Positions 141 through 43,457 of a stretch of DNA of 64,000 nt are shown here, in pieces. The stretch spans positions 890 to 64,889 of the forward strand of contig CAYWFF010000001.1 in NCBI GenBank assembly GCA_964458085.1, read 5' to 3'. Below the pieces are notes generated by a model that saw nothing but the letters and a program-made list of their open reading frames with translations, was not told the origin of the DNA and searched no databases. Numbering within the stretch: position 1 is the stretch's first letter; each line of letters opens with the position of its first letter. The stretch comes from an uncultured Gammaproteobacteria bacterium. Its GTDB lineage: Bacteria; Patescibacteriota; Microgenomatia; UBA8517. A program made the position numbers and the translations under genes.

Positions 141-2285
141 TCAAAGTTCGCAAGTCGAAAAACCGCACTGTTTACATTTATAGCACTTTTTATCTTTCTT
201 CAACGGCACATCACAAGTCGGGCACATCTTGACTTCAGATTTCCTGTTTGCTCCTCCAAATTCAAACACCTGATCCTTTTTAGTTCTATCTCGGTAAACC
301 GTCAAACCTTTACAACCCAATTTCCAAGCTAGTACATAAGCTTCTTCAATATCATTAGGAGAAGCAGTTGAGGGCATGTTTATAGTTTTGGTAATTGCAT
401 TATCAGTCCACTTTTGGAAAGCTGCCTGCATTTTGATGTGATCACGCCAGTCGATGTCGTGAGCCACTTTGAAAACACGTTTAATGTCTGTAGGAATTTC
501 TTCTATATCCTGGATACTACCGTGACTTTCTACAATTTTTTGGATTAGGTCCTCTGAATAGATTTTTCTTTCTTTCAATTTTTCAACCAAAGTAGGTACA
601 ATTGTCCGAAGCCGCATGCCTTCCATAACATTTTGTTCATAGGCAAGAGCAAAATAAGGTTCAATCCCGAAAGAAGTCTCGCAAATTACTGCGTTACCGC
701 TTGATGGCGGAAAAGTAAGAAGAGCAACATTTCTAGGTTTTCTCTTTTTATTTGCCCAGATGGAATCAGTGACAAATGGAAACGGTCCTTTTTCATCAGC
801 CAGATCACAAGATGCATCAAATGCAGCAGTGTACATAGTTTTGGTAACTTTTTCAGCTAAATCAAAGGCTTCTTCTGAGTCATATGGAATATCAAGAAGC
901 GCCAAAGCCTCTGCCCAACCCACTGCTCCCATTCCGATCCGCCGGTGATTTCTCACTGCCTGCTGAACTTCTGAGACAGGAAACCATGACGCATCTATTA
1001 CGTTGTCCATAAGCCTGGTTGCAACTTTTACCACTTCACTTAGATGATCGTGATCAAACTTATTGTCTTTTATAAATTTTGTGAAATTCACATACCCTAA
1101 ATTACAAGATTCAAAAGGGAAAAGAGGTTCTTCCCCGCAAGGATTTGTAGCGGCAATCGGTCCGCGTTTTTTAAGAAGCGGATTTCCGAGTGCAGTTCCT
1201 TTGTTAATTGCAGATAAATTAATAATCCCCGGATCCCCGGTTTGCCAAGCCATTGTTGCCATCAAATCTAAAATGGATTTTGCGTTCACCGTGTTTACAA
1301 CTTCTTTAGTTCTTGGATTTACAAGATCCCAATTTTTACCTTTAAGGGCAGCTTCCATAAAGTCATCAGTAATGCCTACTGAAATATTTGTTTTAGGTAA
1401 ATAACCGTCTGTTTGTTTAGCGGATATAAAGTTAAAAATATCAGGATGGTCAGCGTTAAGTATCGCCATATTGCCCGACTCATATTTTCCCTCCTGCCTG
1501 AAAAGACTGGTCATCAGATCAAACATTTCAATCATTTTGACCGGACCTGCTGCAAGTTCAGGGATCCCACCTACCAAATCCCCCTCAGGCCGGATGTTAG
1601 AGAAATTGTATCCGCAACCCCCTCCGTGTTTTTTAATGAGTGTGGATTTATGCAATATCTCAAAAATATCGTTAATGTCATCTGTCATAGGCCAGACAAA
1701 ACAATTTGCCAACTGAGGAGTTTGCTTGCCTGCGTTTGCGAGAGTCCGGGTTCCGGGTAAAAATTCAAATGACTCCATAATTCCTAAAAACTTACTAAAC
1801 CACTTTTCCTGTTTTGCCTTGGTTTTTTCAACAGAAGAGAGTGTTTTTGCAACACGGGTAAGCATTCCTTTTGGAGATTCTATAATTTTCCCCGCTTTGT
1901 CCCTGCGTAGGTACCTCATCTTTAAAATGTAAAGCGTGTTGTATGAAAGCCCTATGTCGTCTTTTACCCCCAATGCATTTTTATCCTGTTTAATATGTTT
2001 CTTATTTTCTCGGAAGCGTATGTAGGCTTTTGCAGTCTTTGCATGTCCGCGCTCAATTAAAACCTTTTCCACAATTTCTCCGATTTCTGATGTTAAAACC
2101 GCTTCGCCATTCGGATAACGATTGTTGACAAATGCCACAACTTCCCCGGTAATTTGTTCTGCCAAAGTTTTATCACTCCCGCCTACACTTTGGGCAGCAA
2201 GCCAAATACTGGTGAGGATTTTTTCCGGGCTAAAGACTTCTTTTTGGCCGATATTTTTTAGTACTAGTTTTTCTTGTTTTGCCAT
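141..2285 (-). CDS. nrdJ: class II (adenosylcobalamin-dependent) ribonucleotide reductase, paralog 1
   Basis: Active-site NPCGE motif (thiyl Cys-Glu), conserved N-terminal Cys (ANCFVW) and ESCNL Cys, no glycyl-radical motif, C-terminal CxxC...CxxC zinc ribbon; 714 aa. Confidence 0.8.
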   Translation of the reverse strand: MAKQEKLVLKNIGQKEVFSPEKILTSIWLAAQSVGGSDKTLAEQITGEVVAFVNNRYPNGEAVLTSEIGEIVEKVLIERGHAKTAKAYIRFRENKKHIKQDKNALGVKDDIGLSYNTLYILKMRYLRRDKAGKIIESPKGMLTRVAKTLSSVEKTKAKQEKWFSKFLGIMESFEFLPGTRTLANAGKQTPQLANCFVWPMTDDINDIFEILHKSTLIKKHGGGCGYNFSNIRPEGDLVGGIPELAAGPVKMIEMFDLMTSLFRQEGKYESGNMAILNADHPDIFNFISAKQTDGYLPKTNISVGITDDFMEAALKGKNWDLVNPRTKEVVNTVNAKSILDLMATMAWQTGDPGIINLSAINKGTALGNPLLKKRGPIAATNPCGEEPLFPFESCNLGYVNFTKFIKDNKFDHDHLSEVVKVATRLMDNVIDASWFPVSEVQQAVRNHRRIGMGAVGWAEALALLDIPYDSEEAFDLAEKVTKTMYTAAFDASCDLADEKGPFPFVTDSIWANKKRKPRNVALLTFPPSSGNAVICETSFGIEPYFALAYEQNVMEGMRLRTIVPTLVEKLKERKIYSEDLIQKIVESHGSIQDIEEIPTDIKRVFKVAHDIDWRDHIKMQAAFQKWTDNAITKTINMPSTASPNDIEEAYVLAWKLGCKGLTVYRDRTKKDQVFEFGGANRKSEVKMCPTCDVPLKKDKKCYKCKQCGFSTCEL

Positions 2286-2327
2286 AAAACTGGTTTAGTT
2301 CAATCGTTATAAAAAACTCTTACTTTT

Positions 2328-4670
2328 CTAGATTTTGCATTTGCTCCAACCGCATTCTTTGCAAGTCACACAACCGCCTTCAAATTCAACAACCCCTCCG
2401 CATTCCGGACACTCTTTTTCGTCGTAAACTTCAACTTGTGCAATTGCCTGACCTGTTAATTTTTTAGACGAAGCTTTCTGTTTAATGCCGGCATTTAAAA
2501 CCTGATCATCTTTACTGCCGTCCCGATAAATAGTAATTCCTTTACAACCCAATTTCCATGCTAAAAGATAGGCTTTTTTAACATCACCAACCGTTGCTGA
2601 ATTTCTGAAATTAACCGTTTTTGAAACTGAATTATCGGCATAGCGTTGGAAAGCTCCTTGTATCCGAACATGCCACTCAGGGTCAATATCGTGAGTTGTA
2701 ACAAAAACTTTCTGGATATCTTGGGGTATTTCTTTCATGCCTTGAATCGACCCGTGGTTTTCTGCTATTTTTGCAATTAATTCTTTTGAATATAAACCCC
2801 GCTCTTTTAAAACCGCTTCAAAATTAGGCTCTACATAGAAAAGCGACGCAGTTGAGCGGTTTTTGGAGTCTTCGTTGTAAAAGGACCGTCTGGTATATAC
2901 AAGTGCAAACAAAGGTTCAATCCCAGAAGTTGTATTTCCGATCATTGAAACAGTACCGGTGGGTGCAATTGTAATCATGGTGCAATTTCTGTATTTTTCA
3001 GCAGATCCTTTATAGGTTGATATATCCCAATTAGGGAAAACGCCTCGGGTCTTTGCTAATTCAAGTGACGCATCCTCAGCGTTTTTCTTCACAAATTTTG
3101 CAATTTTGTCGGCAATTCTAACGCCTTCCGCAGTGTTGTAACCCACGCCCATTTTAAATAAAACTTCAGCAAAACCGATCATTCCAACTCCTATTTTCCG
3201 GTTGCCGTATTTAACCAGCCGCTCTGTTTCTGTCAAAACATAGGCATTTACTTCAATCATATTGTCCAAAAACCGAACGACGGTTTTAACGGTTTGTGCC
3301 AAATCGTCCCAATCCATTTCATAGCTTCCGTTCTGTTTCACCAAGTGACTGGCCAAGTGGACAGAAGTCAGGTTGCAGGATTCATACGGCAGTAAAGGCT
3401 GTTCTCCGCAGGGGTTTGTAGCATCCAGTTTTCCCAAAGTTGGCGTGAAATTATCCTCTTCCATCCTATCAAGAAATATCATTCCCGGATCTCCAGTTTT
3501 CCACGCGTGTTCACAAATATCATCAAAGAGTTTTTTCGCTCTGACGGATTTTACCGTAATACCGTTTCTGGGATTCACCAGATTAAAACGTTTATCAGAC
3601 ACTACGGCGTCCATAAATTCGTTGGTTACACCGACTGAAATATTAAAGTTCTTCATCAAACCATCCTGATCTTTAACTGAGATAAATTCATAAATATCGG
3701 GATGTTCAACATTGAGTATTCCCATATTTCCGCCGTGCCTTTTTGCACCCTGAACTATTTTTGAAAGTGCTGCAGAATATACCTGCAGAAAATCAACCGG
3801 TCCTGAAGCGGCGTTGGGAATATTTCTTACTTTATCTCCTTTAAATCTGATTTGACTGAAATTAAATCCTGTCCCACCATAATTCTTCTGAATTAGTGCA
3901 GCGTCTCCCAATGTTTTAAAAATTGCACCTATTGAGTCCGTTACCGGTAAAACAAAACAGGGAGACAATTGCTGAAGGCAAGCTTCATTTCCCGCTTCAT
4001 ACAAAGCACTTCTGGTACACACAAATTTAAAACGCGCCATTTTGTCAAAAAATATTCTGGCAACCTGTTCAACCAGCTTTTCGTCCCCCCAGGTAATCTC
4101 CGCTTTTGCCAAGTGTTTTGCTACCCGCCAAAATATTTGACCCGGAGTTTCCAGAAGATCCCCGCTTGAGTCCTGTTTGGAACATCGGGAAACCAACGTG
4201 AGTTTAGCGTTTTCTGTCATTTTAGGTTCCCACATTTTATAAGAAGATTTTTTTGCACTTAGCTTTCTCTCTTTAAAGAGAATGTAATATTTTGCAGCTT
4301 TGAAGTATCCCGCTTCAGCTATAATCGGTTCTACAATGTCCCGGATTTTTTTGGTAGTAATTGTCTCCTTGTCGATTTCTGAAAGAATAATGTAAACTTT
4401 TTTAAAGATGTCCTTTGCGGTTTTTTGACTGTATGTCTTAGTGTCTTTGCCGACGAGAATTATACTTTTACTTAGTTTTTGTAAACTGAATTTTTCTTTA
4501 TCCCCTGTACTTTTGATTACCGTTTCTATTTTCAAGTGAGGCAGTGAAGCTGCCGAACTGCTTATTTTTAAATCACCATAACTAACAGTGGCTAACATTT
4601 CACCCGGAGGGCTGCCTCTACCGTTTGTTGATTTTTGGAGGTTTTTTAAACTGCCGTTATTTTTTTTCAT
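2328..4670 (-). CDS. nrdJ: class II ribonucleotide reductase, paralog 2
   Basis: NPCGEQPLLPYESCNL motif block, conserved Cys set, C-terminal Cys4 ribbon; 780 aa; diverged from paralogs 1 and 3. Confidence 0.8.
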   Translation of the reverse strand: MKKNNGSLKNLQKSTNGRGSPPGEMLATVSYGDLKISSSAASLPHLKIETVIKSTGDKEKFSLQKLSKSIILVGKDTKTYSQKTAKDIFKKVYIILSEIDKETITTKKIRDIVEPIIAEAGYFKAAKYYILFKERKLSAKKSSYKMWEPKMTENAKLTLVSRCSKQDSSGDLLETPGQIFWRVAKHLAKAEITWGDEKLVEQVARIFFDKMARFKFVCTRSALYEAGNEACLQQLSPCFVLPVTDSIGAIFKTLGDAALIQKNYGGTGFNFSQIRFKGDKVRNIPNAASGPVDFLQVYSAALSKIVQGAKRHGGNMGILNVEHPDIYEFISVKDQDGLMKNFNISVGVTNEFMDAVVSDKRFNLVNPRNGITVKSVRAKKLFDDICEHAWKTGDPGMIFLDRMEEDNFTPTLGKLDATNPCGEQPLLPYESCNLTSVHLASHLVKQNGSYEMDWDDLAQTVKTVVRFLDNMIEVNAYVLTETERLVKYGNRKIGVGMIGFAEVLFKMGVGYNTAEGVRIADKIAKFVKKNAEDASLELAKTRGVFPNWDISTYKGSAEKYRNCTMITIAPTGTVSMIGNTTSGIEPLFALVYTRRSFYNEDSKNRSTASLFYVEPNFEAVLKERGLYSKELIAKIAENHGSIQGMKEIPQDIQKVFVTTHDIDPEWHVRIQGAFQRYADNSVSKTVNFRNSATVGDVKKAYLLAWKLGCKGITIYRDGSKDDQVLNAGIKQKASSKKLTGQAIAQVEVYDEKECPECGGVVEFEGGCVTCKECGWSKCKI

Positions 4671-4709
4671 AAATATAACTAATCACTAAATACTAAAACT
4701 CACCTGTCG

Positions 4710-7172
4710 TCAACACTCTGAATATCCGCAACCATGACATGTTTTGCAACCCATTTCGTGTACTAAAGTTGCGTTTCCGCATGAAGGGCACATATCTGCC
4801 TGTTTTGTAACTAATTCCATTTGAGCAGGAACTGCTTGCTCTTGTAAAGGAAGAGTCTGCTGCTCCTCGGCATAGCTGTTTCCGTTGCCGTTTATAGCAT
4901 GAGGGTCTTGTTTCTCTTTACCCGAAAGCATTCCCATATCCATAGCAAGCGCTTTTGCTATAGCATCGGGAAGCGATAGTATTTTCTCTGATCCGAAACC
5001 TACTGTCCGAGCTCCCCCAATACCCATAAGCTGATCGATTATAAATACTGCCCGCTCTCTCGTGCTTAGGTTGCTGCCGAATCTCAATGATTTCGAAATT
5101 AACCTGCCTAAAGCTTCCGCCATAGCCTGAACATCACTCCCCGCACGGCCGATATTTATAAACAACTCAACCGGCGCTCCCGTCTCATCGTGGTTAACTG
5201 TAATAAACGCCGTCCCCACCGGAGTTTTCAGGCGATAAGTTGCGCCAATTACTTTAGTGGGGCGAATCCAATTGTAGGACTTTTGCAATTCGCCATTTAC
5301 GTTTTCGGGTGAAATTTCACTTTTACCTGCTTCTTTACCTTTAGAGCTTTCGTCTGCCCTGATTAATGTTCCCTCACGCGATCCTTCTCGCATATAAGAA
5401 ATTCCCTTACATCCCGTTTCGTAAGCAAGTTCATATAGTTTTTTAACATCGTCCACGCTGTGAGTTTTTGGCGCGTTTACGGTTTTACTAATGGAAGAAT
5501 CGGTATAATGCTGAATTAATGATTGAATTTGTACATGCTCCGCAGGAGTTAAATCATCAGCAACAACAAAATATTCCGGCATAGTTTCAGTTCCGTTTTC
5601 ATCAACCCACTCCTGATATAACGGGTGGTACATAGTTCTCTCGCCTAGTCGATCCTTTTGGATATAAGAAAAAGAAAAGACCGGTTCTATTCCAGATGAT
5701 GCTCCTGCTAAAAGCGCAATTTTCCCGGTCGGTGCTTCAGTCAGGATAAGTGCATTTCTTATCCCGTGTTTTTTAATATTTTTCCGAATGCCTTGAGGCA
5801 TGGTCCTCATAAATCCGCTGGCAAGAAACTTGTCTGCCATGAACTGCGGGAAAGCCCCTTTTTCCTTTGCCAGATCCACTGACGTTTCATAAGCGACATC
5901 CCGAAGCGTCCGGTAAATTTTTTCAATCACTTCAAGAGACTTCTTGGATCCATAGCGAATTTTCATTTTTATAAGAGCGTCAGCTAAACCCAAAGTTCCC
6001 AGCCCAATACGTCTCTCACGCGCCTGAACTTCCTCTATTTCGGGATATAAATATTTCTCGGCATCAACTGCATTATCCAGGAACCGCACTCCTGAGCGGA
6101 CAACATCAGAAAACTCTTTATAGTCAAAAAGACCCCCGGAGACAAATGAGGAAAGATTGATTGAGCTTAAATTACAAACACCCCACGCAGGTAATCCCTG
6201 TTCGCCGCAAGGGTTTGTAGCAATGTTTTTTTCAAAGTACCAGGTGTTGTTCATTTCGTTGTATCTATCCATGAAGACTACTCCCGGTTCAGCCGAAGCC
6301 CAAGCAGAGTTACAAATTTTGTCCCATAGATAGCGGGCTTTTTCTGTTTTATACACCCTTACAGGGTGGCCTTTAGATTCCCAGTCGGACATATCTCCCT
6401 GCCAGTCTGTCCGGTAGTGAGGTGAGTCGGTATCCGGGAATTTAAGATCCCAATTGGCATCACTTTTTACAGCCTTCATAAAAGAATCTGAGACACAAAC
6501 GCTTAAATTTGCTCCTAAAATTTTCCCCTGTTCTTTTTTGACAGTAATAAATTCCTCCAAATCAGGATGCCAATCCCACAACATAATCATAAGAGCTCCT
6601 CTTCTGGTCCCTCCCTGTTGAATAATGTCATGAGCAGCCACAGAATAAATATTTGCCCAGCTAACTGCTCCCGAACTTGTACCATTAACTGACTTTAAAT
6701 AAGATCCACGCGGCCGCAGGCTTGAGAGATTAAAACCAACTCCTCCGCCCCGAGCACTTATCTCAGTCATTTGTTCAAGTGTTTTAATTATGCCTTTTCT
6801 GGTATCTTCGGGACTAGGTATTACAAAACAGTTAATCATAGTCGTGTCAGTACCTGTTCCTGCGGTTGTCAAAAATCGGCCTGCGGGACAGAATCTAAAA
6901 TCAGTCATTGCATCAAAGAACTTTGCTTCCCATTCTTTTTTCAACTTTGGCGTTTTTTCTACTTGAGCAAGAGCTTTGGCGACTCTTTTCCACATTTGCT
7001 CTGGATATTTTTCAAGCGGGCTGCCGACTTCGTCTTTCAAGGAATAGCGGTCAAGGAACAGTTTCTGTCTTATACCGGAAAGCTCGGTTCCATTGTCGAG
7101 TTCAAAATAATACCGGTTGGAGCCTGAATATGCTTTTCTTTTTGTTTTTTTTGCAGAACTTTGTAGTTGCAT
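4710..7172 (-). CDS. nrdJ: class II ribonucleotide reductase, paralog 3
   Basis: NPCGEQGLPAWGVCNL motif block, conserved Cys set, C-terminal Cys4 ribbon; 820 aa. Confidence 0.8.
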   Translation of the reverse strand: MQLQSSAKKTKRKAYSGSNRYYFELDNGTELSGIRQKLFLDRYSLKDEVGSPLEKYPEQMWKRVAKALAQVEKTPKLKKEWEAKFFDAMTDFRFCPAGRFLTTAGTGTDTTMINCFVIPSPEDTRKGIIKTLEQMTEISARGGGVGFNLSSLRPRGSYLKSVNGTSSGAVSWANIYSVAAHDIIQQGGTRRGALMIMLWDWHPDLEEFITVKKEQGKILGANLSVCVSDSFMKAVKSDANWDLKFPDTDSPHYRTDWQGDMSDWESKGHPVRVYKTEKARYLWDKICNSAWASAEPGVVFMDRYNEMNNTWYFEKNIATNPCGEQGLPAWGVCNLSSINLSSFVSGGLFDYKEFSDVVRSGVRFLDNAVDAEKYLYPEIEEVQARERRIGLGTLGLADALIKMKIRYGSKKSLEVIEKIYRTLRDVAYETSVDLAKEKGAFPQFMADKFLASGFMRTMPQGIRKNIKKHGIRNALILTEAPTGKIALLAGASSGIEPVFSFSYIQKDRLGERTMYHPLYQEWVDENGTETMPEYFVVADDLTPAEHVQIQSLIQHYTDSSISKTVNAPKTHSVDDVKKLYELAYETGCKGISYMREGSREGTLIRADESSKGKEAGKSEISPENVNGELQKSYNWIRPTKVIGATYRLKTPVGTAFITVNHDETGAPVELFINIGRAGSDVQAMAEALGRLISKSLRFGSNLSTRERAVFIIDQLMGIGGARTVGFGSEKILSLPDAIAKALAMDMGMLSGKEKQDPHAINGNGNSYAEEQQTLPLQEQAVPAQMELVTKQADMCPSCGNATLVHEMGCKTCHGCGYSEC

Positions 7173-7175
7173 ATT

Positions 7176-7616
7176 TTAATCTTTTATTGCTTTGGCAAAA
7201 TCTTCAAGGTCTTCAAATTCCAAGTACACACTGGCAAATCTAAGCCAAGCCACTCTGTCCACTTTCTTTAATCTTTTTAAAACAGCACGACCGATCGCTT
7301 TTGAGGATACTTCTTCTTTCTCTTTTCTAAGCATCTCCCGCTCGACAGAATCAATCACAGAATTAATAAAATCGAGAGGAAGCGGCCGTTTTTCAACCGC
7401 TCTCAAAATCCCGCGTTTCACTTTTTCTCTGTCAAAAAGTTCCCGTCTGCCATCTTTTTTAATTACCCATATACCGTTGCCTTTAACCGTTTCATAAGTA
7501 GTAAAACGCTTTTTGCACTTAATACATTCTCGTCTTCTTCGTATGCTATGACCTTCGTCCCCTGAGCGAGATTCCAATACTTGCGTATTGGCAGTTGCAC
7601 AAAACGGACATTTCAT
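7176..7616 (-). CDS. nrdR: transcriptional repressor NrdR (zinc ribbon + ATP-cone)
   Basis: N-terminal MKCPFC...CIKCKKRF zinc ribbon followed by ATP-cone-like region; 4 bp upstream of nrdJ paralog 3, same strand. Confidence 0.85.
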   Translation of the reverse strand: MKCPFCATANTQVLESRSGDEGHSIRRRRECIKCKKRFTTYETVKGNGIWVIKKDGRRELFDREKVKRGILRAVEKRPLPLDFINSVIDSVEREMLRKEKEEVSSKAIGRAVLKRLKKVDRVAWLRFASVYLEFEDLEDFAKAIKD

Positions 7617-35314: not shown

Positions 35315-35974
35315 TTATTTTTTAAATCCATTTATCAGTTCTCGAAGTTCTTTCTCGGGATCACCTGCTTTAACGATGCCCGTTGCTATTGCTATACCCT
35401 GAGCTCCAAGCTTTAAGCTGGTTGCAACATCCTCCACAGTGTGCACCCCAGCTCCCACTATAAGCGGAATATTGACCGCTTGTGCAATTGTTGCTGCTTT
35501 GACAATAACATCCGGCCTTGCGGTAGCAACGGAACGTGTAGTACTGCCCACCAATTCAGGTGGCTCATACGCAAGGTAGGTAGGTTTAAAACGAACAACT
35601 ACATCAAGTTCATCAGTATCAGCAGCAAATATAAGTGTTTCCAGCCCCACCTGTTTTGCTCTGGTTACTGCTTTAGATAAATCTTCAAACTGGAAGAATT
35701 TTTTCTCTGAGTGGTTTAAGAAAGTCCCCGAAGCACCATCCTCTTTTACTGCTTCTGCAATTACTGAACCGGTGTGTGCTCCGAATTCTACAGGGTCAAT
35801 ATGCTGTGCCCAAACTGTTTCTGACACGCTGCTGACTTCTTTGATGTCTCCTGACTGAACAACCGGAATTATGGGAATGCCGGTTTCTTCCGACACTTTG
35901 ACAAGAACTTGTGAAAGTTTAACTGCATCTTGTCCTGTCCCTTCGGGATAAGCTTTGAAATTAACAAATATCAT
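35315..35974 (-). CDS. tpiA: triosephosphate isomerase, short archaeal-type
   Basis: MIFVNFKAYPEGTG start (cf. archaeal MxIVNFKxY), 219 aa, flanked by glycolytic genes. Confidence 0.55.
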   Translation of the reverse strand: MIFVNFKAYPEGTGQDAVKLSQVLVKVSEETGIPIIPVVQSGDIKEVSSVSETVWAQHIDPVEFGAHTGSVIAEAVKEDGASGTFLNHSEKKFFQFEDLSKAVTRAKQVGLETLIFAADTDELDVVVRFKPTYLAYEPPELVGSTTRSVATARPDVIVKAATIAQAVNIPLIVGAGVHTVEDVATSLKLGAQGIAIATGIVKAGDPEKELRELINGFKK

Positions 35975-36225
35975 GGAGCCAATTTAAAAACGGTTTGCAA
36001 CTTACCCTTATCAAAACCTACTATTGTCTCTTTAGAACCGTCTTCTCTCTCGACGACAGTAAAAGGAACCCCCATAAATCCATGGGAGTCTGCCATCATC
36101 ACCTTTTGCGCATCCGGATCCTGATCGACTAATTTTTCTGTAAAAGGAATATTTTTACCGGTTAAATAGTCCATCATTAATTTACAGTAAGGACAGGTTG
36201 TTGTTGCAAAAACAGTAACTATCAT
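35971..36225 (-). CDS. glutaredoxin-like (NrdH-like) small redoxin
   Basis: TTCPYC CxxC motif, 84 aa thioredoxin fold size. Confidence 0.55.
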   Translation of the reverse strand: MIVTVFATTTCPYCKLMMDYLTGKNIPFTEKLVDQDPDAQKVMMADSHGFMGVPFTVVEREDGSKETIVGFDKGKLQTVFKLAP

Positions 36226-36237
36226 ATAGTTATTAAG

Positions 36238-36972
36238 TCATTGTATAGCGTAACCAAGGCGAAATGCAATTTCAAACATAAAAGCATTGACATATTTATA
36301 GGTATCAGTCAAAAGCAAAATACCCATTCCGATAAGTAATAACCCTGTTAAATTCTGTAAAATATGCAGCATTCTTTGTGACCTTATTTTTTTTGTAATA
36401 TGTATTACTCCCAAACTTGTAAGAATAAACGGAACAGACATTCCGAGTGCATAAAAAAACAACAATAAAGCACCGTTTAATACTGTCGCTTGTACTGCTG
36501 CAAGCGTAAATATAGCACCCAGGACCACCCCCACACAAGGCGACCAGGTAACAGCAAACAAAACTCCAAATAAAAATGCATGCCCGCGAAGTTTAGTTTT
36601 TAAGGGGTGGGGAATTAAGTTCCACTCTCCGGTAAGCCACGGAATTTTAATTATTCCTAACTGCTGAATTCCTAAAATCACAATAAATAATCCGCCCGCT
36701 TGTTGTAATGAACCCTGATACAAACGCAGTACGCTCCCCCAACTTGCAGCTGTTGCTCCCAAAATCACAAATACAGTAGTAAATCCGATAACAAAATTTG
36801 CTGTCAACCAAACAACTCTCAAATTAATTTTGCTTTTATTTACAGCCTTACTGGGTATAGCGTCTCCTGTGATAAAACTAATATATAAAGGTAGCAGCGG
36901 CACGACGCACGGAGCTAAAAATGATGTGATCCCTGCCACAAATGCAACCGGAAGAGAAATGTCAAACATCAT
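36238..36972 (-). CDS. ccdA: cytochrome c biogenesis / thiol-disulfide transporter CcdA (DsbD-like TM domain)
   Basis: LAPCVVPLLPLYISF and WSPCVG motifs with paired Cys in TM helices. Confidence 0.7.
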   Translation of the reverse strand: MMFDISLPVAFVAGITSFLAPCVVPLLPLYISFITGDAIPSKAVNKSKINLRVVWLTANFVIGFTTVFVILGATAASWGSVLRLYQGSLQQAGGLFIVILGIQQLGIIKIPWLTGEWNLIPHPLKTKLRGHAFLFGVLFAVTWSPCVGVVLGAIFTLAAVQATVLNGALLLFFYALGMSVPFILTSLGVIHITKKIRSQRMLHILQNLTGLLLIGMGILLLTDTYKYVNAFMFEIAFRLGYAIQ

Positions 36973-37004
36973 TTAAGTATACCCGAAGTTGTAATTTTAA
37001 AATA

Positions 37005-37559
37005 TCAGAATGAGCCTTGCAGCAAGATGTTTTGCGGTTTATTGTCCGGTGTTTTATCCCGGGACACTATTACCTGAGTAAAACCTGAAAGGTCGAGCGT
37101 GTTTTGATAGTCTACAATATACCCTCCCTTGGCAATCTGAAGAGTTCCCATATAGACAACTTCATACTCGTCCTGGTCTTCTGTTCCTCTTGTTAACCAA
37201 GCATGATATGGCTTCCCGTCTGCCGGGTCAGGCAAATCGGCAAGCACCGTACTATCAAAACGATTATTTTCATATTTTTTAGTAGCAATAGCAGAACCGT
37301 TTCCCCCTGACACATCTTTTAGTTCAGCTTTATCCACATTTTCAGGAAGAGTTACCCTGAATCTTTCCTGAATATTTTGTTCTATTCCCTGAACGAAAGG
37401 AGAGGGGCTCGGAGTCAGAGAATTTGATACCTGAATTTTGTTGTTATTTACCCGTTGCCAAAGATACCACCCTGCAGCACCCGCAACTACCAAAAGCACA
37501 ACTACTATGAGTATCCTTCTCACTAGGCAGAGAATATCATGCTCACAACATGGTGTCAA
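37005..37559 (-). CDS. hypothetical membrane-anchored protein
   Basis: single N-terminal TM. Confidence 0.4.
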   Translation of the reverse strand: MTPCCEHDILCLVRRILIVVVLLVVAGAAGWYLWQRVNNNKIQVSNSLTPSPSPFVQGIEQNIQERFRVTLPENVDKAELKDVSGGNGSAIATKKYENNRFDSTVLADLPDPADGKPYHAWLTRGTEDQDEYEVVYMGTLQIAKGGYIVDYQNTLDLSGFTQVIVSRDKTPDNKPQNILLQGSF

Positions 37560-37624
37560 TTCTGCTCAACCAAAAAAACACATACTGTATATTCCGCATA
37601 TTTACCGATTTTTTACCGCAAGCC

Positions 37625-37813
37625 TCAGCGAAGTTTCATATAAACACCAAAAAGTGCTAATACAGAAGCTACCAAAAGCCATTGTGTTGAGGCTAGCCAA
37701 ATATCGGTTCCCATATATCCGATTCCTGACAATACGACTGCAACAGCCGCACCTCCCATTAAAATTTGAGAAAAATTAGACATATCACCACCTGTTTCCT
37801 TCTTTTTTGCCAT
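37625..37813 (-). CDS. small membrane protein
   Basis: 62 aa, two hydrophobic helices. Confidence 0.3.
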   Translation of the reverse strand: MAKKKETGGDMSNFSQILMGGAAVAVVLSGIGYMGTDIWLASTQWLLVASVLALFGVYMKLR

Positions 37814-37842
37814 TTATATCACCTCCTTTACAAATACCCTTA

Positions 37843-38169
37843 TTAAGACTCGCTAGAGTGTTCCCACTTTTCTGCGTTTTCTAAAATATCACCTTTTTTA
37901 AAGAGTATTGCAGAAAGTACCTCTTCCCACTTTGGAAGTTTTCGTATTACCCATGCCAGGTCTATTGCAAAATGTTCCATTTCTTCTTCCTGTGCGTGGC
38001 GCATAATTTCTGCAACCTCCTTGTCTTTTGTTGCAGCAATCCGCTGTTCATACCATGAAATCGCTTCTGCTTCTTCTGTTAGGGAAGTTATAATCCGTGC
38101 AAAATCCCTGGTTTTGTCGTCCATTTCTTCCGCCGGTTCATGATACTGGTTAAATCCCATACTGCTCAC
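37843..38169 (-). CDS. ferritin-like / rubrerythrin-like domain protein
   Basis: acidic helical protein with EEEMEH and ExxH-like metal-site residues; adjacent to VIT1 gene. Confidence 0.45.
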   Translation of the reverse strand: MSSMGFNQYHEPAEEMDDKTRDFARIITSLTEEAEAISWYEQRIAATKDKEVAEIMRHAQEEEMEHFAIDLAWVIRKLPKWEEVLSAILFKKGDILENAEKWEHSSES

Positions 38170-38172
38170 CTC

Positions 38173-38700
38173 CTAGCTTAAGACATAAGTTTGTAAGAAA
38201 TATCCTAAAGAATATGATACAAACGACGCAAATCCGCCGACAAATAAAGTTTCAAAACCGCTATGGATTTTATTTTTTCCCGTGTAGTTTGCCCTAAGCA
38301 CTCCAACATAGAAAAGGGAGATCATAACGAAAATAAATGAGTACATGAATGTAGACGGAAAGTTAAAAATATATGGTACTAATGGTATAAGTCCTGCCGT
38401 ATTAAATGCCGCAAACATAATCGCACCATGTTTAAAAGGAGCGTTAGTCGGCTCATCCCCATCACCCGACTTTTCCTCATATTCCAATTCGCTTTTTACC
38501 CCCAAATAACTTCCTGAGGCCATTGAAATACTGTCTGCCAAAACATTTGCAAATCCTAAAATCAGAACAGTCGTATAAGGCAAGTGAGCACCTGCTGCTC
38601 CGGCAATAATTGCAAACGTTGTTACCAACCCGTCACTTGCAGCAAAAACAGCATCACCCAAAAGGGATGCGCGCTCATGGAGTTTTGAAAGTCTGGGCAT
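38173..38700 (-). CDS. VIT1/CCC1-family iron/manganese transporter
   Basis: AASDGLVTTFAIIAGAAGA signature, 5 TM. Confidence 0.6.
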   Translation of the reverse strand: MPRLSKLHERASLLGDAVFAASDGLVTTFAIIAGAAGAHLPYTTVLILGFANVLADSISMASGSYLGVKSELEYEEKSGDGDEPTNAPFKHGAIMFAAFNTAGLIPLVPYIFNFPSTFMYSFIFVMISLFYVGVLRANYTGKNKIHSGFETLFVGGFASFVSYSLGYFLQTYVLS

Positions 38701-38765
38701 TCATTCATCTTAGCTTTCAAATGTTCTACTTGTAAATAGCCTAAGGATTGTAATATGATGACTCA

Positions 38766-38899
38766 GGTTGTGTTCAAGGAATACGGTCAAATCCGTAGCT
38801 GTACCGCAACTGTAACCTTTCGATTTTCGAAGGGAAGCCAGAAAACTAACAACCGCTGCCAAATTTATATTGCTTTTGGCGTATCCCGAGTAGGAAAAT
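38766..38899 (+). ncRNA. cobalamin (B12) riboswitch, copy 1
   Basis: AAGGAAUACGGUCAAAUCCGUAGCUGUACCGCAACUGUAACC ... GGGAAGCCAG core matches the B12-element pattern (GGGAAg-ACGGUG-AAUCCg-AGCnG-CCGCnACUGUaA; GGGAAG box); conserved AUCCCGAGNAGGAA segment overlapping the RBS of 38900. Confidence 0.75.
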
Positions 38900-39340
38900 A
38901 TGAAAAAGATAATAATTATCCTTCTAGCACTCTCCTCTTTAGTTGTTGCTTTATTTGTATGGCAAAATCTCACCATAAAAAACTCCCCAGTCGGAACTAA
39001 TTCCCAAGTATCAAATATGCCCGATACTAATACTCTATCGGCTAGCGTCTTAATTGATTACGGAGACACCCAAAGCCCAGAGTACCCCCTTAACTTGGCT
39101 GAAACCACAAATGCTTTTGATGCGCTCCTGTTTGCGGCAGAAAAAGAAGGTAAAGAAATAAAAAGTACACAATATGATTTTGGGGTCTTTATTGAAACAG
39201 TCGGCAGTATGGAAAGCTCAGCCGAAAAAGCCTGGATTTATTTTGTGAATGGCAACTCCGGTCAAGTTGCAGCTGATCAATATGAATTAAATGAAGGCGA
39301 CAAGATAGAGTGGAAATTCATAGCACCCACGGACAATTAA
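38900..39340 (+). CDS. small secreted protein, possible B12-binding (DUF4430/transcobalamin-like) uptake component
   Basis: signal peptide + about 110-aa domain; directly downstream of cobalamin riboswitch 1. Confidence 0.4.
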   Translation: MKKIIIILLALSSLVVALFVWQNLTIKNSPVGTNSQVSNMPDTNTLSASVLIDYGDTQSPEYPLNLAETTNAFDALLFAAEKEGKEIKSTQYDFGVFIETVGSMESSAEKAWIYFVNGNSGQVAADQYELNEGDKIEWKFIAPTDN

Positions 39341-39347
39341 CTTAAAA

Positions 39348-39974
39348 ATGAAAAGATCCCAAACTTACACACCCTTTGCGAAACGCCTTGTAATTGGTCT
39401 TTTTGTTATTGCTTTTTTAGAACGAGTAATATTTGATCTGGGTGCGAATGTTGAACTTGTTACGGCTGCTTTCATACTTGGTAGTGCTTACTTGGGAAGA
39501 AATCAGGTTTTATGGTTAGTTTTGGTTCTTATGGTTTCCACAGACCTTTTACTGGGAAACACAAATATATTTCTTTTTACCTGGAGCGGTTTTCTCGTTC
39601 CGGCATTTTTTGCTGGAGGCTTAACTAAAAAACTTATGAGGTTTATCAAACACTCCAAAGTCCGCTTTCCCAATAAATTACTGAAGGGTATAGCACTCAC
39701 TTCCCTAGGATTAACTTCCAATCTCTTTTTCTTCTTTTGGACTAATTTTGGAGTATGGCTTTTGGACTCTTACGGCATGTATGCAAATGATTTCGAAGGG
39801 CTTATGCTTTGTCTTATAAACGGCCTGCCCTTCTTGCGCTCACAAATACTAAGTACTCTTATCTTTATTCCCGTTTTCGCTATAGCAGTAGAAATCTCCA
39901 CTCTTCCTGTCTTCAAACTATTGACCAATAAATTGCTGTTTTCCAATAATTTCAAAGTTCTGGTCAAAAATTAG
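39348..39974 (+). CDS. integral membrane protein, possible ECF-type S component for cobalamin (CbrT-like)
   Basis: 208 aa, about 6 TM; co-transcribed position after riboswitch-controlled secreted protein. Confidence 0.4.
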   Translation: MKRSQTYTPFAKRLVIGLFVIAFLERVIFDLGANVELVTAAFILGSAYLGRNQVLWLVLVLMVSTDLLLGNTNIFLFTWSGFLVPAFFAGGLTKKLMRFIKHSKVRFPNKLLKGIALTSLGLTSNLFFFFWTNFGVWLLDSYGMYANDFEGLMLCLINGLPFLRSQILSTLIFIPVFAIAVEISTLPVFKLLTNKLLFSNNFKVLVKN

Positions 39975-39977
39975 AGA

Positions 39978-40103
39978 GATTGTGTTTAAGGAACTACGGT
40001 GTAAATCCGTGACTGTGCCGCAACTGTAACCCTTCGATTTTCGAAGGGAAGTCAGAAAACTAACAATTCTCTTCGTATATAAGCAACCATCCCGAGCAGG
40101 AAC
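39978..40103 (+). ncRNA. cobalamin (B12) riboswitch, copy 2
   Basis: near-identical core to copy 1 (AAGGAACUACGGUGUAAAUCCGUGACUGUGCCGCAACUGUAACCC...GGGAAGUCAG) and the same AUCCCGAGCAGGAA segment before ATG at 40104. Confidence 0.75.
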
Positions 40104-40928
40104 ATGACGTACAGCGAACACAAAGAACTCCCTCATATTACTACCTGCCGTTTTTTGGAAACTTGGCAAGGCATAAATCCCAACCGTTTAATCGCCGAAC
40201 TAATATCAGTAAACAATGAAACACATAGGAATCCTGACCCTTATCATTTCAGTTTGAGACAGGGAAAATTGATAGATCCCGAAACTGGAAAACCTATAAC
40301 TGATTTTATTTCTGATGGGGTTGAGTTAGAGGTAGTTTTAAAATTACAGGATTGGGCTAACAAAAAAGATGCAGGCCTCGCCTATTGGGTAAGCCCGAGA
40401 CTTGTGGATGTATATCCAAGTGAAAAGTTAATCATTCACAGAATCGCATATACTCTGACCGGCGAAAAAATTGTTTTGAATAGTGCAATTCTTTTTGAAG
40501 CAGAACTTGATAACCCCGAAACTCTTAGGGATACACTTTTTGAATCAGATGATACAGAAGAAAATATTCTTAAGTTATTGGCTTGGGTTCAGGAAGTGTC
40601 AGGAGAAGCAGTGAATTTAACTTCTCACAAAACACATAAAGACCAGGCTCAGTACTTTGCCAAACAAATCATAAATGGGGTGGATCATTCCCAGATTATT
40701 CAAGAAATGCTTCAAACAGGATTTTTAGGTGAATTCTCAATCAGTTGTAAGACGGTAAATAACCCAGCCAGTTTTTCAAATTATATTCTCTCCCGAGCTG
40801 CAATAAATTCTATCGAGACTAGTGAAGGAAAGTATGTAGAAAAATGTGGCAATTGCGGAAAAGAAATTAAAGCAGTTATCAGAAAAGGCTATAAATGCAG
40901 CTGCGGAGGTGTATATGAGGGCTGCTAA
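40104..40928 (+). CDS. uncharacterised cytoplasmic protein with C-terminal Cys4 zinc ribbon, under cobalamin-riboswitch control
   Basis: 274 aa, no TM, C-terminal CGNCGKEIKAVIRKGYKCSCGG; no known adenosyltransferase/Cob motifs seen. Confidence 0.5.
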   Translation: MTYSEHKELPHITTCRFLETWQGINPNRLIAELISVNNETHRNPDPYHFSLRQGKLIDPETGKPITDFISDGVELEVVLKLQDWANKKDAGLAYWVSPRLVDVYPSEKLIIHRIAYTLTGEKIVLNSAILFEAELDNPETLRDTLFESDDTEENILKLLAWVQEVSGEAVNLTSHKTHKDQAQYFAKQIINGVDHSQIIQEMLQTGFLGEFSISCKTVNNPASFSNYILSRAAINSIETSEGKYVEKCGNCGKEIKAVIRKGYKCSCGGVYEGC

Positions 40929-41072: not shown

Positions 41073-41385
41073 TCCCCGGTAGCTCAGTGGTAGAGCAGGA
41101 AGCTGTGAAGTGACGCAGCCTTCAACAGAGATGTTGAAGAGAAAATTGGGTGAATTGCGGGAAGCCTAAAGCTAAAGCTAAGGTAATCCGCAGCCAAGAC
41201 CTATTTGATATTATCAAACAGGTAAGGTTCAGAGACTAGGTGATTACACCCAGAGTCGAGTCTGACTCGACGAGAGCGCCCAACACCCTACCCTTTTAGG
41301 AAGGGTGATGAGATAGTCCACGCTATATGGAAACATATGGATCAGTGTAACTTCAAGGTCGTAGGTTCGAGCCCTACCCGGGGAG
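41073..41385 (+). tRNA. tRNA-Asn(GUU) interrupted in the anticodon loop by a group I intron
   Basis: exon 1 41073-41106 (UCCCCGG UA GCUC AGUGGUA GAGC A GGAAG CUGU) + exon 2 41348-41385 (UAA CUUCA AGGUC GUAGG UUCGAGC CCUAC CCGGGGA G); 7-bp acceptor, U1-A72, G73, body closely resembles bacterial tRNA-Asn; splice junction chosen by exon-terminal U / intron-terminal G and P1 pairing GCUGU/GCAGC. Confidence 0.7.
41107..41347 (+). ncRNA. group I self-splicing intron (241 nt)
   Basis: canonical core elements readable: P (GAAUUGCGGGAAG), Q (AAUCCGCAGCC), R (GGUUCAGAGACUAG), S (AGAUAGUCC); terminal G; 5' exon ends in U. Confidence 0.75.
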
Positions 41386-42876
41386 CACATTAGTACGATA
41401 TTCTGGCAAAAGCAGTACATCGTAAGGTTTTTTGAGGCGAAAATCGAGTTTTCCGTCTTTCAAAATAAGGTTCTCACCGAGGTCGAGAATCAAATCACGT
41501 TTTTCTTCCTTTGTCCCATTCTCCAATCTTTCTTTAGCTGAAAACGCATTATCGAGATATCGTGTGCACATTTCCAACCAAGTATCGGCTGAGTAATCAT
41601 TATCTTCCAACTTTTCTTTGATAGACTTTTTCTCATTGAGAAGTTCTGACTTCTGCTCCAGAAACTCTTCCTTAGTTAGTTCTTGATCTGCTCTCATCCT
41701 GACCAGATACTTAATTCGAGTTTGGATGGCATTATATTGATTCTGTAAATATCTTGCTCGTTTGGAAAACTTTTCTACTTCTTCTTGGTATTTGGCTTTG
41801 AATAACTCAATACCTAATTTCCATGTCTCTTCATCAATCTTGATCTGCACCATGTTTTCGAGCAGAAGTTTTTCTAATCTTTTGCCTGTTATTGCTTGTT
41901 GTTTGCAAATACCTCTTCTGTGAGTGCAATGGTGGTAAGTATAGACAACTGTTCTGTTGGTACGTTTGAAATACTTTGTTTTGACTGTTGTTGTGATTTG
42001 GCAGCCACAATCGCCACAAGTAATCAATCCGTTATAGGTATGCTCCCATACTTTCAATTTAGGCCGAGAACGGAGTTGTAATGCCATTTGCACATCCTCA
42101 AACAACTTCTTGGTTATTAGTGGTTCATACGTACCTTCAAACAACTCGCCATTATGGTGGAAGTATCCATAATAAACTATGCAGTTTAGAATGTTGTGTA
42201 CATGGCTTTTACTGATTTTCTTACCTCGCTTAGTTCGTAATCCTTTATCGTAAAGATGTTTGGCAATCTTTGAGAGGGGGTTACCTTCTTTCGCCATTTG
42301 AAAAGCCTGTTGAATCAATGGGCCTTCAAACGGATGTGGCCTCATAATTCGTTGTCCTCGAATACCAAAGCCTTCATATCCAACTATAGCTGGTCTGGGA
42401 TACTCACCACGTTCGCACTTATGATTTAGTCCTCGTTTTACGTTTTGACTTAGATTTCTTGAATACTGATTAGCCATCCCAAAGTGGATTTGCAGAATCA
42501 GGTGATCTGATTCCTGTGTATAGACAGAACCAGTTGCTGTTCTAATTTCCTTGAGCACACCATCTTGGAGGAGTTGTAAGATCATTCCTCCTTCTTCTGG
42601 ATTACCACAAAGACGATCTTCTTTCCAACAAAGAAAAGCATTTGCTTTTCCAGTCTTTATCAACTGGATTGCCTTATCAAAGTCTGGTCTGTTGTGAGGC
42701 TTGAAAGCTGATCTACTCTCAGAGAATCGGTATTTGACTCTGAGTCCTTCTCGTTTTTCAACCTTTACATTTTCAGCATGTTGATCTTTGAGAGAAGCTA
42801 CTTGTCGCTCTTTCGCTTCGGACGATTTGCGACCATATTCTATATGCACAATTTCATTATCTATACTCATATTCAT
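41374..42876 (-). CDS. large serine recombinase (integrase)
   Basis: N-terminal YGRKSSEAKERQ catalytic Ser motif, recombinase domain, C-terminal CGDCGC...HHC zinc ribbon + coiled coil; 500 aa. Confidence 0.8.
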   Translation of the reverse strand: MNMSIDNEIVHIEYGRKSSEAKERQVASLKDQHAENVKVEKREGLRVKYRFSESRSAFKPHNRPDFDKAIQLIKTGKANAFLCWKEDRLCGNPEEGGMILQLLQDGVLKEIRTATGSVYTQESDHLILQIHFGMANQYSRNLSQNVKRGLNHKCERGEYPRPAIVGYEGFGIRGQRIMRPHPFEGPLIQQAFQMAKEGNPLSKIAKHLYDKGLRTKRGKKISKSHVHNILNCIVYYGYFHHNGELFEGTYEPLITKKLFEDVQMALQLRSRPKLKVWEHTYNGLITCGDCGCQITTTVKTKYFKRTNRTVVYTYHHCTHRRGICKQQAITGKRLEKLLLENMVQIKIDEETWKLGIELFKAKYQEEVEKFSKRARYLQNQYNAIQTRIKYLVRMRADQELTKEEFLEQKSELLNEKKSIKEKLEDNDYSADTWLEMCTRYLDNAFSAKERLENGTKEEKRDLILDLGENLILKDGKLDFRLKKPYDVLLLPEYRTNVLPG

Positions 42877-42908
42877 CTACTTATAATTTTAGCAAAGTAA
42901 CAGCCTCA

Positions 42909-43457
42909 TTACAGTGATGGTTCCTCCTTATTACTCTCTCCTAAACTCTCCTCTATATCTCTAATATCTTCCTCAGATAAACCCAATTCACCCATAGAAG
43001 GAAAATTAGAGCTTTGAGGGCTGTTTTGAGATGACTTCCTTTGCATTTCTGCAATAAAATAATCCTCTTTTTCAATTTGTGTATGCAAGGTTGCAAATAA
43101 TTCTTTCATTATTGATTCAGGGAACTTAGCAAAGATTTTGATCCACTCTTTTTCAAAAGCATAATAATTGGTAATGATGGTCAGTCCATTTTTTTCGCTG
43201 AGAAGTCCCAATTTGATAAGTTCTTTACGCCTTCTATGAACTGTTGAAATACTACAGTTCCACGCTTTGGCTAATACTTGATCGTCACGGATGATTACTC
43301 TGTAATTTTCGTGTCTTCGATCAAAATCAGCTTGCATAACAAAGGCAATATAAGCACCTAACTGAGTAAAACCAAAATCTGGATGATTGAGAAGGAATTG
43401 GACACCTCGAAGAACCGAAATGTATCCGATAAAATTAGGTTTGTATTGAATCTTCAT
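42909..43457 (-). CDS. putative HTH DNA-binding protein
   Basis: CSISTVHRRRKELIKLGLL helix-turn-helix-like segment. Confidence 0.35.
   Translation of the reverse strand: MKIQYKPNFIGYISVLRGVQFLLNHPDFGFTQLGAYIAFVMQADFDRRHENYRVIIRDDQVLAKAWNCSISTVHRRRKELIKLGLLSEKNGLTIITNYYAFEKEWIKIFAKFPESIMKELFATLHTQIEKEDYFIAEMQRKSSQNSPQSSNFPSMGELGLSEEDIRDIEESLGESNKEEPSL

Follow-up and report, generated by a model that had tools for sequence, protein, structure and literature searches.

An apparently new protein family encoded behind a conserved cobalamin riboswitch in Microgenomates

We analyzed a stretch of 64,000 nucleotides (hereafter the window; contig CAYWFF010000001.1 of assembly GCA_964458085.1) from a Microgenomates bacterium with a small genome, centering on one gene that encodes a protein of 274 residues (the target) and on the leader that precedes it. 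The protein is very probably a new, uncharacterized part of vitamin B12 handling in these bacteria. A cobalamin riboswitch aptamer lies directly upstream of the family gene in 29 of 30 distinct loci (window included), and the protein matches no known family or fold, such that the proposal of a first-pass annotation, a candidate novel cobalamin-related function, is now well supported.

Results

A dedicated cobalamin riboswitch precedes the target gene

The open reading frame (ORF) of the target was confirmed as real. Its leader contains a cobalamin riboswitch aptamer (RS2), distinct from a paralogous copy (RS1) that stands before two neighboring genes for a DUF4430 and a DUF6580 protein; the target hence has its own riboswitch copy, separate from this presumed uptake pair, in agreement with the earlier annotation (coordinates in Table 1). 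RS2 scores 32.5 bits with RF00174 against a gathering score of 31.5 (E 1.7e-4), and its B12-box core, GTGCCGCAACTGT, begins at 40015. This score is marginal by itself, and is backed by the aptamers of orthologs, by compensatory changes in P4 and P6 and by loop–loop covariation.

We collected loci for close and distant members of the family, and found homologous aptamers before 28 further distinct orthologous loci. Coding-strand matches at or above the gathering score (Rfam cobalamin clan) are present in the window and in loci L001-L005, L016, L020, L042, L044, and L045, with correctly placed matches below that score in L006, L007, L011, and L013; the orthologous leaders reach 54.6 bits (Rfam clan CL00101: RF00174/RF01689). 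The B12-box pattern G[TC][AG][AC]CGC[AT]AC[CT]GT occurs at most 300 nucleotides upstream of the gene in 24 of 25 nucleotide-distinct loci, as well as in the window, and nowhere else on either strand in the 390 kb of those loci (the aptamer before the DUF4430 gene of L007, detected by Rfam, has a variant core and falls outside the pattern). The aptamer is retained before four distant members at 22-29% protein identity, and an alignment of 22 leaders reveals compensatory double changes in four of the five P4 pairs and in one pair of P6. The first-pass annotation had named loss of riboswitch linkage among orthologs as grounds for giving up its proposal; instead, the riboswitch stands before the family gene almost always, the exception being locus L009. 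Judged from these features, the target leader is a short cobalamin riboswitch.

The leader of L009 and its duplicates L010, L014, and L021 (at about 4911-5000) carries a TTGACA promoter-like site and an altered, related element before the ATG, TCCCATAGCGGGAAAC. The metagenome-assembled genome (MAG) that holds L009 and two others bear the NCBI title “uncultured Gammaproteobacteria”, apparently by mislabeling.

The leader fits a kissing-loop translational switch

The expression platform between RS2 and the start codon is a hairpin with a 3-bp stem, present in the minimum free energy fold, and its motif (YCC-GAGCA-GGA, 1-12 nucleotides before the ATG) is kept in 23 of 25 orthologous loci. Positions 2-4 of the B12-box core form the L5 triplet of the aptamer. 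This triplet complements the middle three nucleotides of the hairpin loop, and covariation between the two yields four Watson–Crick combinations: UGC/GCA in 24 leaders, UAC/GUA in RS1 of the window, and UAA/UUA and UUC/GAA, one in each of the two riboswitches of L007. The hairpin stem covaries as well (CUC...AGA in L019 and L033).

This pattern fits a translational OFF switch in which L5 would form a kissing interaction with the hairpin loop. Upon binding of cobalamin, the kissing loop would lock the hairpin that contains the Shine-Dalgarno sequence and translation would be shut off, by analogy with env8-type class II switches; the target protein would thus be made only when B12 is scarce. In env8-type class II switches, as Johnson and colleagues reportedly described in 2012, ligand binding stabilizes a kissing interaction between L5 and L13, by which the ribosome-binding site is concealed. 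The leaders studied here share with that class (RF01689, “AdoCbl-II”) a short aptamer with a B12 box, a ribosome-binding-site hairpin and a loop complementary to L5, and many orthologous leaders exceed the RF01689 gathering threshold. The window copy departs from class II by an inserted P6 hairpin and by a higher score with RF00174; a further difference is the platform CCCGAGCAGGA, which hardly varies and is specific to this lineage. The riboswitch itself belongs to a known class.

The platform CCCGAG(C/U)AGGA (38885-38895, 40091-40101, and all orthologous leaders) is almost invariant across divergent Microgenomates, and the same platform spans two aptamer subtypes (UUGUGUUUAAGGAA... and AUUGGUGAAU...). 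Near-invariance across divergent lineages and aptamer subtypes suggests strong constraint beyond base pairing.

The target founds an unnamed family with an invariant loop cysteine

The target has 27 close homologs, each without name or Pfam domain, and an exhaustive profile search (E<=1e-3) extends the family to 276 clusters at 50% identity, with uniform lengths of about 262-345 residues; titled genome records place its members in MAGs of Microgenomates, Woesebacteria, and Patescibacteria. The target itself has no Pfam match at E<=1, nothing meaningful in NCBIfam and no PHROG match, and a PDB sequence search with the single protein gave no match; the family profile finds only eL43-type zinc ribbons in the PDB (E 6e-5). 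A panel of 109 diverse members, compared with Pfam, NCBIfam, and PHROGs, returned generic zinc-ribbon matches and otherwise nothing, and neither a domain fusion nor an informative name was found among relatives (the 276 clusters, and a profile search of a set of 5.8 billion proteins). Homology to known families was therefore rejected, the Pfam, NCBIfam, PHROG, and PDB sequence and profile searches giving ribbons at most. Clear descent from a known non-B12 family, the other finding that the first-pass annotation had said would undo its proposal, did not emerge from profiles, PDB, structure, or fusions. Full-text literature searches on cobalamin riboswitches in Patescibacteria, the Candidate Phyla Radiation (CPR) or Microgenomates, and on DUF6580, returned nothing. 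By these sequence and literature searches the family is new: it is unnamed, has no detectable relatives apart from the generic ribbon, and was not found in the literature.

An AlphaFold model of the target (predicted local distance difference test, pLDDT, of 82.4) and conservation computed over 158 and 109 sequences indicate an N-terminal α/β domain with a helical segment, followed by a cysteine-bearing loop and a C-terminal zinc ribbon. In the alignment of 109, Glu39, Cys215, and Cys265 are fully invariant; Glu74, Trp95, Ser97, Pro98, Lys108, and Arg142 are at least 90% conserved, as are Gly209, Cys248, Cys251, and Cys267, and Asp45, Trp84, Tyr104, Lys122, and Asn126 are also well conserved. 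Those of the N-terminal part make up a set of conserved polar and aromatic residues. The structural similarity of this domain to PAS domains is weak, with scores within the noise range. The C-terminal part holds a conserved motif, G209-x4-S214-C215, whose cysteine is 100% conserved in the 158 sequences and begins a loop (residues 215-219) with pLDDT below 50.

The ribbon follows the C4 zinc-ribbon pattern, in which a β-hairpin pair bears two CxxC-type knuckles separated by about 12-14 residues, with the spacing C248-x2-C251-x13-C265-x1-C267 and model strands at 243-247 and 254-259. A fifth cysteine lies at the C-terminus, or at most two residues from the end, in most members. The target thus has six conserved cysteines (four in the ribbon, Cys215 and the C-terminal Cys274); the earlier annotation, which took the ribbon as the only feature, was right about its four cysteines and missed the invariant Cys215 and the terminal Cys274. 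Read from the sequence rather than by a predictor, the target contains no long hydrophobic segment and appears soluble.

The target shares a riboswitch regulon with presumed uptake genes

Vertebrate B12 binders have DUF4430 as their C-terminal domain (PMC4350170). The DUF4430 protein of the window begins with a hydrophobic segment (read by eye, without a signal-peptide predictor) and is presumed to be an extracellular cobalamin binder of the same regulon; the DUF6580 protein is presumed to be a membrane transport component, a role that we infer. PDB sequence matches for both proteins were uninformative. The two genes adjoin that of the target in the window and in L007/L008, each unit with its own riboswitch, and DUF4430 alone adjoins it in L011/L012. 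Coupling of the whole family to the B12 switch, together with this occasional adjacency to DUF4430/DUF6580 genes under the same switch, places the protein in a B12 regulon, which here acquires a new protein component under a riboswitch class already known. As operon partners, no other genes proved to be conserved, and DUF4430/DUF6580 occur in a minority of loci.

A cobalamin-handling role is favored

We tentatively favor a reading in which the target, from a family not described before, handles cobalamin in the cytoplasm, serving as an escort or processing the upper ligand via thiolates, in a B12 regulon with the DUF4430/DUF6580 pair. Invariant Glu, Asp, Lys, Arg, Trp, and Tyr residues of the N-terminal α/β domain would line a ligand pocket, with Cys215 on a flexible loop and the C-terminal cysteine held out by a structural zinc ribbon. 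The thiols or thiolates of these two cysteines would bind the cobalt of freshly imported cobalamin, or else take off or reduce its upper ligand; the cofactor would be trapped inside the cell and handed on towards the adenosylcobalamin-dependent ribonucleotide reductase NrdJ.

A loop cysteine and a terminal cysteine on an apparently soluble protein recall the cobalt–sulfur chemistry of BtuM and MMADHC, and it is on this ground that we favor an escort or upper-ligand-processing role. B12 escorts that use cobalt–sulfur ligation include BtuM (PMC6072759) and MMADHC/MMACHC (PMC12501144; bioRxiv 10.1101/2023.07.25.550549). The likeness to MMADHC/MMACHC (CblD/CblC; PMC12501144) is limited to a proposed working principle, in which imported cobalamin is taken over by a soluble protein of the cytoplasm whose cysteine thiolate on cobalt serves hand-over or processing; neither the nitroreductase-like fold nor the profile of MMACHC/MMADHC was found in the target. 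BtuM, a bacterial B12 uptake protein, decyanates vitamin B12 via a cysteine ligand (PMC6072759), and comparable cysteine-based chemistry is proposed for the target. Unlike the target, BtuM is integral to the membrane, and there is no detectable relationship between the two.

Several points weigh against this role. Cobalamin binding by the target is something that we infer, and its fold matches no known B12 binder; PAS-size pockets are small for a corrinoid, and the cysteines might serve nothing beyond structure or redox chemistry. Monocistronic genes without transporter neighbors prevail among the orthologs, and the 90-nucleotide leader of L009 (with its duplicates) holds no aptamer, the sole exception. 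By itself a riboswitch indicates no more than B12-responsive expression, a logic that B12-independent substitutes fit as well. An outright B12-independent isozyme nevertheless seems unlikely, given that the protein has 274 residues without reductase or kinase features and that the only evident B12-dependent enzymes of the genome are NrdJ paralogs.

Alternatives center on B12 activation and the NrdJ reductases

Less probable than a handling role, and rather doubtful, is the broader proposal that this family represents the B12-activation enzyme missing so far in Microgenomates and related Patescibacteria, with a new fold, be it an adenosyltransferase or a thiol-dependent upper-ligand remover or reductase. 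If true, the enzyme would turn scavenged cobalamins into adenosylcobalamin for their only ribonucleotide reductases.

In its narrower form, that of a new type of ATP:cob(I)alamin adenosyltransferase supplying NrdJ where CobA, PduO, and EutT enzymes are absent, we consider the proposal a serious rival, if an improbable one. Adenosyltransferase genes are often found in B12-riboswitch operons, and EutT-type enzymes are similar in size to the target and need a cysteine-rich metal site; the resemblance to EutT is one of length and cysteine-rich metal site, whereas no EutT model matches the target. Three NrdJ-type reductases lie within the window, the first-pass annotation having invoked NrdJ, and the invariant Glu/Asp and Lys/Arg residues would suit Mg-ATP binding. 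The annotation had also argued from the lack of an adenosyltransferase nearby: no Pfam adenosyltransferase is indeed present among the 36 window ORFs scanned, which is a weak argument, one window being a small part of the genome. On the other side, the target has no similarity to the three known families (Pfam PF01923 and PF02572, and the NCBIfam EutT models), which bears out the earlier statement that it lacks BtuR/CobA, PduO, and EutT motifs. Among the 109 members, no adenosyltransferase appears in the 25 Pfam families matched by most members, and none in NCBIfam; no nucleotide-binding family of Pfam or NCBIfam matches the target, and an invariant cysteine on a flexible loop is not known as a feature of adenosyltransferases.

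Lower still we rank a B12-sparing or NrdJ-directed factor that would not itself bind B12. Such a protein might, for example, imitate the cysteine-rich NrdJ tail as a thiol redox shuttle, or catalyze a bypass of NrdJ under B12 scarcity. Control by an OFF riboswitch is the classical signature of B12-independent substitutes, and the six-cysteine layout of the target (four zinc ligands and two others) parallels that of the NrdJ cysteine-rich domain, in which four cysteines bind zinc and two shuttle electrons; this domain exists as stand-alone NrdJb in some bacteria, and its physiological reductant is unknown (PMC5704485). The three paralogs of the window (714, 780, and 820 residues; two with ATP-cones, one with a TSCPD domain) are presumed to be B12-dependent clients, and each ends in a six-cysteine zinc array, C-x2-C-x10-12-C-x2-C-x2-C-G-x3-C, a tail overlooked by the annotation. 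The same genome thereby encodes such a tail and the target's C-terminal ribbon with extra conserved cysteines, six in all. A minority subgroup of the family has NrdJ-like spacing (C-x2-C-x8/9-C-x2-C-x2-C), most members being spaced otherwise, and a few members weakly match NrdJ models.

Homology to the NrdJ cysteine-rich domain was nonetheless rejected. Profile–profile comparison (61 domain sequences) gives a probability of 25% with the ribbon and 0.2% without, the latter no better than a reversed control; 24 ribbon columns align and nothing else, and against TSCPD (PF12637) the N-terminal 240 residues of the target have no profile similarity (0.2%). The predicted structure of the cysteine-rich domain (pLDDT 80.6) has IscU/NifU/SufE and disulfide-reductase interface domains as neighbors, whereas those of the fold predicted for the target are PAS-like. 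The ribbon-free probability, the 24 columns, and the different structural neighbors together argue for a likeness of design between the target and the NrdJ tail and not for demonstrable descent.

A B12-responsive regulator or nucleic-acid binder, joining a PAS-like sensor domain to a DNA- or RNA-binding zinc ribbon, is very unlikely. For PAS domains the structural scores do not rise above noise, and neither helix-turn-helix nor other DNA-binding families are matched. The density of invariant charged residues, together with the invariant loop cysteine, suggests catalysis or ligand binding, and conserved downstream partner genes are lacking.

Genomic surroundings of the target

Table 1. Positions of the features discussed, in window coordinates.
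Feature	Positions	Strand	Details
Three tandem class-II-type ribonucleotide reductase (NrdJ) paralogs	141-7172	-	Pfam ribonucleotide reductase barrel, ATP-cone, TSCPD
NrdR	7176-7616	-	Directly upstream of the NrdJ paralogs
Glutaredoxin/NrdH-like CPYC protein	35971-36225	-	
EncFtn-like ferritin	37843-38169	-	
VIT1 iron transporter	38173-38700	-	
Paralogous cobalamin riboswitch RS1	38751-38868	+	Rfam 35.9 bits
RS1 platform, CCCGAGUAGGA	38885-38895	+	L5/L13 pair UAC/GUA, compensatory relative to RS2
DUF4430 protein	38900-39340	+	Pfam PF14478, E 2e-13
DUF6580 protein, hydrophobic throughout	39348-39974	+	Pfam PF20221, E 1.9e-21
Cobalamin riboswitch aptamer RS2, dedicated to the target gene	39963-40082	+	Rfam RF00174
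Expression platform hairpin UCC-CGAGCA-GGA, uCCCGAGCAGGA	40090-40101	+	3′ arm is the Shine-Dalgarno sequence; 2 nucleotides before ATG
Target ORF	40104-40928	+	274 residues, ATG start
N-terminal α/β domain and helical segment	40104-40718	+	Residues 1-205; AlphaFold model and conservation
Cys215 codon	40746-40748	+	Flexible loop after motif GFLGxxSISC
C-terminal zinc ribbon and terminal Cys274	40830-40925	+	C248, C251, C265, C267; eL43-type profile match
tRNA-Asn(GUU), split in the anticodon by a group I intron of ~241 nucleotides	41073-41385	+	Rfam RF00028, 119 bits
Large serine recombinase, 500 residues	within 41374-43457 and onward	-	3′ end overlaps the tRNA-Asn 3′ end

Upstream of the target, a syntenic block on the reverse strand (35971-38700) encodes a glutaredoxin, a DsbD/CcdA-like membrane protein, an EncFtn-like ferritin and VIT1; VIT1 and glutaredoxin recur near distant orthologs (L007, L011, L013, L045, and L046). 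Other neighbors of orthologs are housekeeping genes (a glycolysis cluster, VIT1, EF-P) or convergent genes. Among the latter is a conserved protein of ~205 residues with a long central hydrophobic stretch and no Pfam family, encoded in convergent orientation to the target with a 4-nucleotide overlap at the target's stop codon (L002 6801-7418, L004 6801-7418, L011 5822-6448, and L046 8888-9508 on the reverse strand); it is absent from the window, where a tRNA and an integrated element follow the target. At the other end of the window, three NrdJ paralogs are unusual for a small CPR genome.

The exons of the split tRNA-Asn, missed by ARAGORN, lie at about 41073-41106 and 41348-41385 by comparison with the uninterrupted tRNA-Asn of L007 (5910-5986), and RF00028 group I intron matches are also found just downstream of the L016 and L017 orthologs. 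Small unannotated ORFs follow the serine recombinase, and an integrated mobile element or prophage probably occupies the tRNA-Asn site, its edge being marked by the split tRNA gene and the recombinase.

Discussion

The literature searched offered no description of B12 uptake and activation in Patescibacteria. These bacteria have tiny genomes and scavenge cofactors, yet here the supply of DNA precursors rests on B12-dependent NrdJ. The target leader, with its clear covariation, would illustrate translational switching by a kissing loop in a compact, natural form. The family behind it, which matches no known fold and nearly always has a B12 riboswitch upstream, is a well-defined candidate, open to direct testing, for a new step in the trafficking or activation of B12; if this is true, a new cobalamin-interacting fold would be added to a short list.
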